Part shown: positions 60,001 through 63,000 of the stretch, piece by piece
Numbering within the stretch: position 1 is the first letter of the stretch
Layout: each line of letters begins with the position of its first letter
DNA from: an uncultured Gammaproteobacteria bacterium
GTDB taxonomy: Bacteria > Patescibacteriota > Patescibacteriia > UBA1558 > GWA2-36-10
Assembly: GCA_964515785.1 (NCBI GenBank)
Contig: CAZEWH010000001.1
Location: forward strand, 134,941-198,940
Direction of reading: 5' to 3'
Length of the DNA stretch: 64,000 nt
Position numbers: made by a program

Positions 60001-63000
60001 CTAATTATTACTGGGATAAGGGGTGAAAAATTTAATTAATTTCTATACGGGATGCGTTTTGATTTTACCAGTTATATAATGATTTTGAGAAGCTTGCGGC
60101 GCAAGAAAATGCGCTCTTTTTTGACTTCTTTGGGTATTATTATTGGTATTTCTTCAGTTTTGATTATCATGTCAGTAGGCAAAGGTGCTGAAAGTTTGGT
60201 TGTCAATCAAATAGAGGGTATTGGTAGTGATCTGATTGCTGTCTTGCCCGGAGCAGCAGATGATGAAGGCCCGCCAGCTTCGGTGATGGGTATTATTATC
60301 ACAACTCTGACTGATGATGATCGACAAGCTATAGTTGAGCGTGTACCAGAAATAGAAGTAGCGGCTAGTTATTTGCGAGGAGTAGCTTCTGTAACTTGGC
60401 AAAATAAAACTGACGATACAAGTTTTCTTGGTATTACAGCCAATTATTTGCAAGTAGAAAAAACAGAAACTATCAAAGGCCGTTTTATAAATCAAGAAGA
60501 GGAAGATCAACATGCCAAAGTAGCTGTCTTAGGATATGCAGTAGCTGAAGAATTGTTTGGTACTAATAATAATCCGATTGGCGAACGCGTCAAAATAAAT
60601 AAAGAAACTTTTCGAGTGATTGGTGTAGTAGAAGAGCGAGGAGTAGTTGCTTTTCAAAATCAAGATGATCAGGTTTTTGTGCCACTTTCCACTGCGCAAA
60701 AATTATTGATGGGTGTCAATCATATTAGTTTTATTCGTGCTAAGACTCGAGATGGTTCTGATTCTGCTTTTGTGATTGAACAAACCAAACAAGTCTTACG
60801 TGATCAGCATGATATAGATGATCCTTCCAAAGATGATTTTTCAGTGCGTTCAGCTGAAGAGCAACTAGATATTTTGAAAACTGTCACAGGTGCTATTAAT
60901 TATTTCTTAGCTATGGTAGCTGCTATCTCACTCATAGTCGGTGGTATAGGCATCATGAATATTATGCTAGTCTCAGTTGCAGAAAGCACCAAAGAAATTG
61001 GTTTGCGAAAAGCAGTAGGTGCCAAACGGCGTGATATTAGTATGCAATTTTTGATGCAAACTATTATTCTTACATTATTGGGTGGCATAATAGGTATTAT
61101 TATTGGAGTTTTGATATCTTGGTTAGTAGCAATTGTAGCTACTTATTTGGGTTATGATTGGGATTTTATAGTGACTTTAAATTCTATTATCATGGCTTTG
61201 GCCTTTACTTTTGTAGTGGCAATTGCCTTTGGTTGGTATCCAGCTCAAAAAGCAGCCAAACTCCAACCAGTTGAAGCATTGAGATACGAATGACGTAGTC
61301 GTCCCGCACTTGATGCGGGAACCAGTAAGTTAAATTAATAAACTAAATTTGCTAGATACCGCATCAAGTGCGGTATGATATAGAATATGAGATATATTGA
61401 TACATTTAAAATAGCTATGCGGGCTTTGAAAAAATCTAAAGCCAGGACTTTTTTGACTATTTTGGGTGTGGTGATTGGTATTACCTCTGTGTCAGTGATT
61501 GTTTCAGCTGGAGATAGTATGGAAGAGCTGATTACTGGTCAAGTAGCTAGTTTTGGTTCTGATCTTATCCAAACCGAAGTCCGAGTACCTAGTAGCGGCG
61601 GAGGTCTGACTAGTCAGGCTCAGGGAGTAGAGATCACAACCATGACTCTAGGTGACAAAGAAGCTATTGAAGATTTGCCTTATATCAAACAAGCTTATGC
61701 TGTCTTGACTGGTCAAGAATTACTGGCTTGGCAAGGCAATATTAGCAAAGCTTTGATTTATGCTGCGACCGCAGAATTTATAGACATTGATGCTTCAGAA
61801 ATAGACCAAGGCAGATTTTATACTGAAGAAGAAGATGATAGTTTGACCCGAGTCATAGTCTTGGGTTCTGGTGTCAAAGAAGATTTGTTTGGTGCTTCTG
61901 ACGCTGTAGGCGAGAATGTCAAAATAAATAAAACAAATTATAAAGTAATTGGCACCATGAAACCACGGGGAGCTGTATTTTTCTTTGATATGGATGACAT
62001 GGTCTATATTCCAGTGCAGACTACGCAAAAGTTAATTTCTGGGGTTGATTATGTGGCAGCTATTACTGCGCAGATGGTAGATCCTGAACAAGAAGAAGAA
62101 GCTGTGGCAGCTATCATTGCTTTGATGCGTGAGCGGCATGATATCACCAATCCTGACAGAGATGATTTTGAGACTATGTCTATGGCTGAAGCTCAAGAAT
62201 TGATGTCTAGTATTTTGGGTGGCGTGACACTCTTACTTATTGCCTTAGCTGGAGTTTCTTTGATAGTTGGCGGAGTTGGTATCATGAATATCATGTATGC
62301 TACAGTCGCAGAACGGACTTTTGAAATTGGTCTCCGCAAAGCTGTAGGAAGCACCAAAGCAGATATTATGAAGCAATTTTTGATGGAATCTTTGGTCATT
62401 ACTTTCCTGGGAGGAGTAGGGGGTATATTATTAGGTTTGTTGATTACTTATCTTGTGTCTTTGGCTGCCAACATATCTGGCTTTGAATGGGCTTTTACCT
62501 GGTCTATTAGTGGAGTAATACTATCTTTGGGCTTTTCTATGGCTATAGGGCTAATTTTTGGCCTCTACCCAGCCAAAAAAGCTGCTAACCTTAATCCAAT
62601 CACTGCTTTGCGGAGAGAATAATATAAAAACCCCCACTGTCTCGTAAGCTCGACATCTCCCCCTAGACTAGGGGGAGAAAGAGAGGGGGTAAAGTAAAAA
62701 AATAACCCCTCATCATAGATGAGGGGAAATTCGCTCTAGGCGAATTTACCTGGTACTGCTTGATCTAACCGAGAACCAGAATCCGGTTGATTCTACTCAT
62801 AGATACCTCCAGTTTGAGGTATTTTTATTATATCATTATATATCAAAACATGCTATTAGCACTCCTTGACCCCGTATACCGCCTTCGGCGGCACGGGGCA
62901 GGCATAGAGTACTTTTTTGAATTGGCACTCTTGACACGGGAGTGCTAATTGCTCTATAATATACAAATGCAAGAAAGGACTCAAAAATTACTCAAAGAAA

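Follow-up and report, generated by a model that had tools for sequence, protein, structure and literature searches.

Some repetitive extragenic palindromic (REP) sequences and bacterial interspersed mosaic elements (BIMEs) are mobilised by REP-associated tyrosine transposases (RAYTs). The Correia elements of Neisseria, which are miniature inverted-repeat transposable elements (MITEs), carry terminal inverted repeats and a TA target duplication and exert effects on transcription, while the GC clusters of yeast mitochondrial genomes are short GC-rich palindromes in AT-rich intergenic DNA that show presence/absence polymorphism. The genomes of Patescibacteria are very small and compact. REPs are defined as small extragenic palindromes that mostly follow coding regions, in unidirectional or convergent gene arrangements, and carry an unpaired GTAG or CGTC tag at one end (PMC3733652), and the yeast mitochondrial GC clusters are treated as mobile (PMC4478555). 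Here, we analyse a cluster of GC-rich hairpins in a 64,000-nt stretch of DNA (the window; contig CAZEWH010000001.1, positions 134,941 to 198,940; 32% GC), whose host is placed by its HrcA homologues among the Patescibacteria, near Candidatus Komeilibacteria. The cluster lies in the 344-nt spacer (62623–62966) between two plus-strand genes, a MacB/FtsX-type ABC permease gene and hrcA, and its first hairpin is the core of one member of a newly recognised family of Y-shaped palindromic repeats, the Y element, which belongs among the small palindromic interspersed repeats. Rather than one small RNA (sRNA), the cluster is probably a patchwork, and the 200-nt stretch is best read, with somewhat better than even confidence, as a composite of recent insertions in a hypervariable spacer upstream of the heat-shock operon. 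A literature search found no report of interspersed palindromic repeats in Patescibacteria, which is a negative search and not proof of absence, and searches with Y sequence strings matched only eukaryotic papers.

The original prediction, made from the sequence alone, described five perfect stems with TAG in their loops; all five are present by sequence and stem listing (Table 1), and the TAG loops are as described for hairpins 1–3. Folding of the 215-nt stretch gives z = -5.1 for the plus strand and z = -4.4 for the minus strand, and none of 200 shuffles does as well. In addition, the stem list of the window contains 24 perfect stems that reach 7 bp or more and include no fewer than 3 G-C pairs, and four of these fall within 167 nt at the cluster, against about 0.06 expected. 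Together, the shuffle scores and the stem density argue that the cluster is not due to chance, and its identical recovery in several independent groundwater metagenome assemblies argues against an assembly artefact. The prediction that it is not a known housekeeping RNA is borne out: Rfam at gathering threshold gives no match in the whole window, ARAGORN finds no tRNA or tmRNA, and at E values up to 10 the region 62400–63100 yields only the sub-threshold hairpin look-alikes STnc490, PyrR and L10 leader, the best of which (STnc490) reaches 26 bits against a threshold of 56.

Comparison with relatives places the cluster among recent additions. In four syntenic relatives, whose HrcA proteins are 67–71% identical to that of the window, the gene order is kept (YknX-like adaptor, ABC ATPase, two permeases, then hrcA-grpE-...-dnaK), and the permease–hrcA spacer measures 75–155 nt, holding just the controlling inverted repeat of chaperone expression (CIRCE; TTAGCACTC-CTTGACnnn-GAGTGCTAA) and a TATAAT box. 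None of hairpins 1–5 occurs in these four spacers, and hairpins 1 and 3 are absent even from the two closest relatives, L043 and L044, whose HrcA is 96% identical. Because the spacer is 344 nt here and 75–155 nt in the relatives, the hairpin cluster is a lineage-specific addition rather than a conserved sRNA locus. Compared with each other or with the window, the upstream spacers of L043 (1–221) and L044 (1–224) reach an identity of only about 64%, while their hrcA genes are 98.2% identical in DNA and encode identical proteins, indicating that the spacer is hypervariable, or recombinogenic.

The simplest structural explanation, and the one originally proposed, is one stable plus-strand sRNA or an elaborate 3′ untranslated region (UTR) of the macB operon, which would extend from the stop codon of the permease as far as the terminator at hairpin 5. 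The region lies directly after a plus-strand operon, folds strongly on the plus strand, and ends with a hairpin 5 that, followed by TTTTTATT (T-run 62823–62829), scores as a plus-strand terminator in the window. However, this T-run is absent from L043 and L044, where hairpin 2 moreover has a mismatched A·C pair when read on the plus strand; hairpin 1 belongs to a repeat with many copies; the region has no Rfam match; and the whole block is missing from the relatives at about 67–72% HrcA identity. Conservation of the stems in syntenic relatives, a check set beforehand, breaks down beyond the closest relatives, and by that check the proposal is refuted in its simple form. A single plus-strand RNA is highly unlikely. 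A small structured transcript retains some footing, since hairpins 2, 4 and 5 are kept in the two closest relatives, but the pattern of conservation points to the minus strand. In AT-rich genomes, clusters of GC-rich hairpins can look like structured sRNAs, and a repeat and synteny check should precede the call of a non-coding RNA.

Hairpin 1 is not an independent stem: it forms arm P3 of the Y element and is nested in a larger, predicted three-way junction with an outer stem (P1) and a degenerate variable arm (P2). The purine-rich tract noted between hairpins 1 and 2 is indeed present (62671–62689), but it consists of the 3′ arm of hairpin 1 and the closing strand of the outer stem rather than a separate feature. 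BLAST of the spacer reveals a second copy 3.8 kb downstream, just outside the window (L005:6491–6562) and 3 nt after the dnaK stop, which matches 62650–62704 with 85% identity over the conserved 3′ part (55 nt) and differs in the variable arm. Aligning both local copies defines the unit as ACCCCCACTGTC, a variable hairpin and GACA, followed by TCTCCCCCTAG-n-CTAGGGGGAGA and then nnGAGA-GGGGGT. The earlier argument that the stems differ, so that the cluster is no REP array, holds for hairpins 2–5 but not for hairpin 1, a member of a dispersed repeat. BLAST of hairpins 2–5, the insert in the upstream CIRCE and the permease–permease spacer against all fetched loci and the window gives no further copies, and the Y element is accordingly the sole repeat family in the data at hand.

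A pattern scan with the central palindrome finds 7 loci in species-representative genomes and 18 metagenome loci. Nine of these lie on one 812-kb contig of about 33% GC, Ga0233431_1000006, on which BLAST recovers a tenth copy with one mismatch, giving at least 10 copies in both orientations with 90–98% core identity; the window genome has 2 copies in about 67 kb. The low-GC copies share one architecture, 56–77 nt in length: P1 pairs ACCCCC(A/T)CT with AGAGGGGGT, P3 hardly varies and is connected to P1 by a variable linker of 3 nt, and the P2 side arm differs among copies in length and sequence (GTCC-loop-GGAC, sometimes extended by CCTGCCTGCCGGCAGGCAGG). Specifically, P3 is invariant save for its central base in 11 of the 12 aligned copies, with a single arm substitution in the remaining one (L039b), and the three-way junction is predicted by RNAfold in 10 of the 12. 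Across the alignment 98% of pairs are kept, with compensatory changes solely in P2. The covariance model built for the family (R1) recovers all Y copies at 77–89 bits; it detects no further copy in the window, in 60 kb of three Komeilibacteria relatives, or in 23 kb of L049, a relative of the 812-kb contig whose PcrA is 89% identical.

The copies are scattered beside unrelated housekeeping genes (ClpB, topoisomerase I, RelA/SpoT, MiaB-like, KsgA, LemA, pilin, TrmB-like, TsaD and PcrA) and keep close to the ends of genes. Of the 11 copies with resolvable context, 9 lie 3–39 nt after a stop codon; the distance from that stop is mostly 3–12 nt and in every case shorter than the distance to the start codon that follows. 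With the gene that ends just before each copy taken as reference, 5 copies are forward and 4 reverse, with one further copy between divergent and one between convergent genes. Two orthologous sites are empty. In L043, the permease stop runs directly to hairpin 2, the filled and empty sites lying in A-rich sequence, and in L049, a single nucleotide separates PcrA from the next gene.

Measured against described elements, Y shows the 9-bp terminal inverted repeats of a MITE in 12 of 12 copies and the presence/absence polymorphism at orthologous sites, after the permease as compared with L043 and after PcrA as compared with L049. Most copies have TA at their flanks. Like MITEs and Correia elements Y has no coding capacity and is inserted in intergenic or 3′-proximal positions, whereas it is much shorter, almost wholly palindromic and built around an invariant central hairpin; to our knowledge no parent insertion sequence has Y-type ends. 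Like REPs and BIMEs it is small, GC-rich and extragenic, sits mostly just 3′ of genes in both orientations and would plausibly form an RNA hairpin. However, the 12 aligned copies end in TACCCCC... and ...GGGGGTA without a GTAG or CGTC tag, and a 56–77-nt three-way junction with a variable arm replaces the simple 20–40-bp palindrome of REPs. The copy number is also low (at least 10 on 812 kb), in contrast to the high number of REPs. Y resembles the yeast mitochondrial GC clusters in being a short GC-rich palindrome scattered in the AT-rich intergenic DNA of a compact genome and in its presence/absence polymorphism, a likeness of pattern only, since these belong to another domain of life and their sequences are unrelated. 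Overall, Y has most, though not all, of the properties of MITEs and lacks the tag and size features of REPs. A MITE/REP-like repeat fits Y best, because of the absence of orientation bias, the terminal inverted repeats, the polymorphic insertion and the patchy near-identity. In the mechanism we propose, a Y copy would land within the few bases after a stop codon and spread as a non-autonomous element, and transcription of a copy in either orientation would yield a highly stable three-way junction, placed at the 3′ region of an mRNA or within it; Y may secondarily serve as an RNA 3′ structure.

The same placement could instead reflect selection for insulation, with uni- and bidirectional terminators stacked between the macB and hrcA operons and Y as a selected terminator or 3′-stabiliser design, neither sRNA nor mobile element being involved. 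The position of copies 3–12 nt after stops in both orientations agrees with this, T-runs follow roughly half of the Y copies, the two local copies end the macB and dnaK operons, and REP elements are described as acting in this manner (PMC3733652). Against it, both copies of the window genome have A-rich rather than T-rich downstream flanks, so that the window copy does not qualify as an intrinsic terminator, and a number of copies occur within operons or separate divergent genes. Moreover, core identity of 90–98% across genomes whose comparable proteins are 30–38% identical (PilB and PilC only, which may be paralogues) is unlike convergent design, and insulators leave the conserved minus-strand ribosome-binding site (RBS), ATG and codons described below unexplained. 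Insulation as the whole explanation is doubtful.

Several observations nevertheless weigh against Y as a mobile element in a composite of insertions. The target-site duplication is ambiguous, since the TA that borders the CCCCC...GGGGG core at either end (11 of 12 copies) may simply extend the stem. No transposase, RAYTs included, is seen among the genes next to Y copies in the available fragments of both genomes. Copy number is about 1 per 80 kb, and absence from 20-kb samples of other genomes is consequently uninformative except at orthologous sites. Both hosts are Komeilibacteria-like (PcrA of the 812-kb contig, from a Parcubacteria/Komeilibacteria-like host, is 72% identical to that of a Komeilibacteria metagenome-assembled genome), and the distance between them is poorly measured. 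The two local copies stand on either side of a single operon, an arrangement that may reflect a function instead.

A transposase or nuclease beside Y was considered and rejected: the neighbours are housekeeping genes, and a single DUF559 endonuclease-like gene at one copy is too little. That gene, encoding 121 aa with a Vsr-like endonuclease fold, accompanies the Y copy after PcrA on the 812-kb contig (L033:9046–9480), and both are absent from L049 (12860–12960). A hammerhead or other small ribozyme was likewise rejected for the Y junction, which has almost no unpaired conserved core and no Rfam match. Y was found neither in viral contigs by pattern scan nor in plasmids and phages by blastn, where the low-complexity filter may have contributed to the negative result. 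In L039 (23–1108, minus strand), the TsaD frame runs through a Y copy (87–143) before reaching a stop; this looks like an insertion into the very 3′ end of the TsaD gene, or a replacement of it, that altered the C-terminus.

Other hairpins share parts of the Y element. Solo hairpins of the form (G)TCCCCCT-gaca/tgtt-AGGGGGA(T), with the same stem as P3 and another loop, occur at L026:30–49, L039:2429–2446 and L047:5–23; they lie about 10–40 nt from Y copies on the 812-kb contig, and one lies upstream of a split CIRCE in L047. These may represent a second, related hairpin family. Long hairpins ACCCCC..CCCTCCCCCTAGnCTAGGGGGAGGG..GGGGGT follow stop codons in unrelated, mostly high-GC bacteria: L023, L027, L034, L042 (high-GC), L019 (Amesbacteria), L024 and L018. 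These look-alikes, found among others in high-GC Burkholderiales contigs and an Amesbacteria metagenome-assembled genome, are simple hairpins longer than Y with the same core and ends. They may be homologous to Y or convergent, the search pattern itself having selected for the core; their G-rich arm (e.g. GGGGGAGGGTGGGGTGGGGGT) is also a motif of the G-quadruplex type.

The heat-shock operon of the window genome (L004/L005:3001–6663) lacks both hsp20 and the gene that follows dnaK in the relatives L013, L015 and L017. This latter gene is DnaJ in two of them (Pfam), and the second Y copy stands at exactly its start position. HrcA is short in the clade of the window, about 220 aa.

Hairpins 2, 4 and 5 behave differently from the Y element, and a probable divergent minus-strand transcription unit of about 125 nt, oriented away from hrcA, is moderately supported by their sequence. 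The substitutions are asymmetric between the strands and favour the minus strand, as seen in G·U pairing, the position of the U-tract, the RBS and ATG, and synonymous changes. In L043 and L044, one substituted pair of hairpin 2 reads as G·U when the minus strand is folded but as A·C for the plus strand (-16.2 vs -12.2 kcal/mol), and in the window and both relatives a T-run follows the hairpin exclusively on the minus strand. A GC-rich stem with a U-tract, kept in relatives, is thus found for hairpin 2 on the minus strand in all three. The proposed terminator at hairpin 5 looks the part on the plus strand of the window, where stem and U-tract are both present, but not in L043 and L044.

The statement that the region has no coding potential holds for long open reading frames (ORFs) but overlooks a conserved 11-codon minus-strand ORF. 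The ORF and its RBS (GGAGG/AGAGG, 5 nt before the ATG) are kept in L043 (MSRINRILWLC) and L044 (MSRINRLLVI). Within codons 2–8 there are five synonymous changes (AGT/AGC, AGA/AGG, CGG/AGG, CTG/TTG and CTG/CTA) and one conservative Ile-to-Leu replacement, the latter with 2 nucleotide changes. Upstream, hairpin 5 on the minus strand would mask the RBS, and this masking is kept with other sequences in L043 (CUUCCA/UGGAGG) and L044 (CUUCU/AGAGG). The -10 block recurs unchanged in L043, while L044 carries ATGACA-17 nt-TATAAT in the corresponding position, and in all three the block abuts a CIRCE arm. The conserved islands in L043/L044 are hence the hairpin 2 terminator, the RBS and ATG, codons 1–8 and the -10 block, in a spacer otherwise about 64% identical. 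In the proposed reconstruction, this older unit would begin with a promoter that abuts CIRCE, continue with a 5′ hairpin sequestering the RBS, the 11-codon ORF and a variable hairpin (hairpin 3 in the window), and end with an intrinsic terminator. Because the predicted promoter touches the HrcA operator, co-repression with the heat-shock operon by HrcA is suggested, and the unit, if transcribed and translated, may be under such control.

Known regulatory RNAs offer partial parallels. As in RNA thermometers (ROSE, fourU) and the 5′ structures of small-toxin mRNAs, hairpin 5 on the minus strand would pair ACCUC with a GGAGG RBS, here beside an HrcA operator, although no Rfam thermometer family matched the hairpin 5 region. 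A type I toxin was rejected for the mini-ORF, since its 11 codons are fewer than those of known type I toxins, and so was a leader-peptide attenuator, since only the antisense of the permease gene lies downstream of the minus-strand terminator.

The case for the minus-strand unit has limits of its own. It rests on three sequences (the window, L043 and L044) of one narrow clade; its -35 box is poor (TAGCAT); the 11-residue peptide matches no known family; in L047, with HrcA 90% identical, the promoter block seems to be replaced by other GC hairpins; and the unit is entirely absent from more distant relatives. The synonymous excess is modest (p about 0.01 by a rough binomial, if a quarter of random changes are synonymous), and coding is confounded with structure because two of the synonymous changes also keep hairpin 4 as minus-strand G·U pairs. 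Both the coding and the structural explanation of the substitutions, however, point to the minus strand.

Alternatively, the ORF may be the decaying 5′ remnant of a lost gene or mobile element, now functionless. The narrow distribution (other close contigs being short or ending within the spacer) and the seemingly missing promoter block of L047 accord with decay, as do the drifting C-terminal codons and stop (11, 11 and 10 codons) and the unrelated sequence past the stop in the relatives; MSRINRILVLG may, by impression only, resemble the start of a Rossmann-type protein. Yet the islands are near-intact with mostly synonymous changes and a kept terminator while the spacer is about 64% identical, and no possible ancestor gene stands at this position in more distant relatives. 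A functionless remnant is, on balance, unlikely.

Returning to the composite reading, hairpin 3 appears to be a palindrome specific to the lineage of the window and a further insertion, with unrelated small hairpins instead at this position in L043/L044; the 33-nt hairpin in the upstream CIRCE would be another such lineage-specific palindrome insertion. A Y element at 90–98% core identity across Parcubacteria lineages, with empty sites in close relatives, would mark gene flow, and could be a source of regulatory or structural change such as split operators and altered 3′ ends. More speculative, but also of greater interest, is the micro-ORF beside CIRCE; if real, it would give a minimal heat-shock regulon an additional member, either a small RNA or a peptide. 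That both extensions are true at once, with Y a horizontally spreading element of the candidate phyla radiation that targets the first bases after stop codons and forms its three-way junction in either orientation, and the minus-strand unit an HrcA/CIRCE-controlled micro-gene with a thermosensor-like RBS hairpin, is quite improbable.

Table 1. Features of the permease–hrcA locus, with positions in the window
Feature	Positions	Strand	Details
MacB/FtsX-type ABC permease gene	61387–62622	+	ORF list; Pfam MacB_PCD and FtsX on identical protein; stop TAA 62620–62622
Y element	62630–62690		61-nt GC-rich palindromic repeat, predicted three-way junction; starts 7 nt after permease stop
Y element P1 (outer stem)			ACCCCC(A)CT / AG(A)GGGGGT in window copy
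Y element P2 (degenerate variable arm)	62638–62655		TGTC...GACA
Y element P3 (= hairpin 1)	62656–62678		perfect palindrome TCTCCCCCTAG-A-CTAGGGGGAGA
Hairpin 1	62656–62678		TCTCCCCCTA-gac-TAGGGGGAGA, 10 bp; arm P3 of Y element
Candidate intrinsic terminator (hairpin 2 and minus-strand U-tract)	62696–62726	-	CCCCUCAUCuauGAUGAGGGG UUAUUUUUUU; terminator scan
Hairpin 2	62706–62726		CCCCTCATC-ata-GATGAGGGG, 9 bp
Hairpin 3	62727–62747		AAATTCGC-tctag-GCGAATTT, 8 bp
11-codon ORF	62765–62800	-	ATG AGT AGA ATC AAC CGG ATT CTG GTT CTC GGT TAG (MSRINRILVLG); contains weak hairpin 4
Hairpin 4	62778–62794		AGAATC-cggtt-GATTCT, 6 bp, weak (-3 kcal/mol)
Hairpin 5	62803–62822		ATACCTC-cagttt-GAGGTAT, 7 bp, then TTTTTATT
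Hairpin 5, minus strand	62803–62822	-	AUACCUC-aaacug-GAGGUAU; predicted to mask RBS GGAGGU (62809–62804), 5 nt before AUG
Predicted extended -10 box	62827–62835	-	TGATATAAT; read from sequence; transcript start would be near 62820, foot of hairpin 5
Disrupted first CIRCE	62856–62915	+	TTAGCACTC-CTTGAC-[33-nt GC hairpin, 62871–62903]-ATA-GAGTACTTT; compare intact L043 operator TTAGCACTCCTTGACATAGAGTGCTAA
Intact CIRCE	62922–62948	+	TTGGCACTC-N9-GAGTGCTAA; overlaps hrcA promoter TTGACA-18 nt-TATAAT (62931–62960)
hrcA	62967–63629	+	first gene of hrcA-grpE-orf106-dnaK operon; Pfam HrcA on identical protein; operon content

The hrcA promoter itself is perfect. The intact CIRCE matches 17 of the 18 bases of TTAGCACTC-N9-GAGTGCTAA and overlaps the -35 box of an operon that encodes HrcA; this CIRCE/promoter layout is the same in the relatives, and constitutes context rather than part of the hairpin cluster. 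The window differs from them in an unusual second copy upstream, split by the 33-nt GC hairpin. The duplication is seen both in the window (62856–62948) and in L047 (48–137), the upstream copy being split and the downstream copy intact. In the window the insert, CCCGTATACCGCCTTCGGCGGCACGGGGCAGGC, sits exactly between CTTGAC and ATAGAGT of the L043-type operator, and it is a probable further lineage-specific palindromic insertion.

The accumulation of palindromes extends upstream through the macB operon. GC-rich hairpins number 7 within 1.6 kb at the locus, against 6 in the other 62 kb of the window. The ABC ATPase–permease 1 and permease–permease spacers measure 73 and 93 nt in the window, where both hold further palindromic elements, whereas both are 3 nt in L013 and L015; in L017, the permease–permease spacer is 3 nt and the ATPase–permease 1 spacer is 82 nt with a related element. 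In the 93-nt permease–permease spacer (61294–61386), hairpins at 61302–61320 and 61356–61376 flank an AT-rich stretch, and their cores, CCGCACTTGATGCGG and CCGCATCAAGTGCGG, are mutual reverse complements, giving a layout that resembles a small MITE. An element of about 66–72 nt with the form tgtCCCGTA...(C/T)GGGATAA...TACGGG occurs at 59986–60051 in the window and at L017:9929–10000, directly preceding the ATG of permease 1 in the former and of hrcA in the latter. Its 5′ UCCCG has two potential pairing partners, both of them CGGGA segments, and the element may be a leader capable of alternative folds or belong to a further repeat family.

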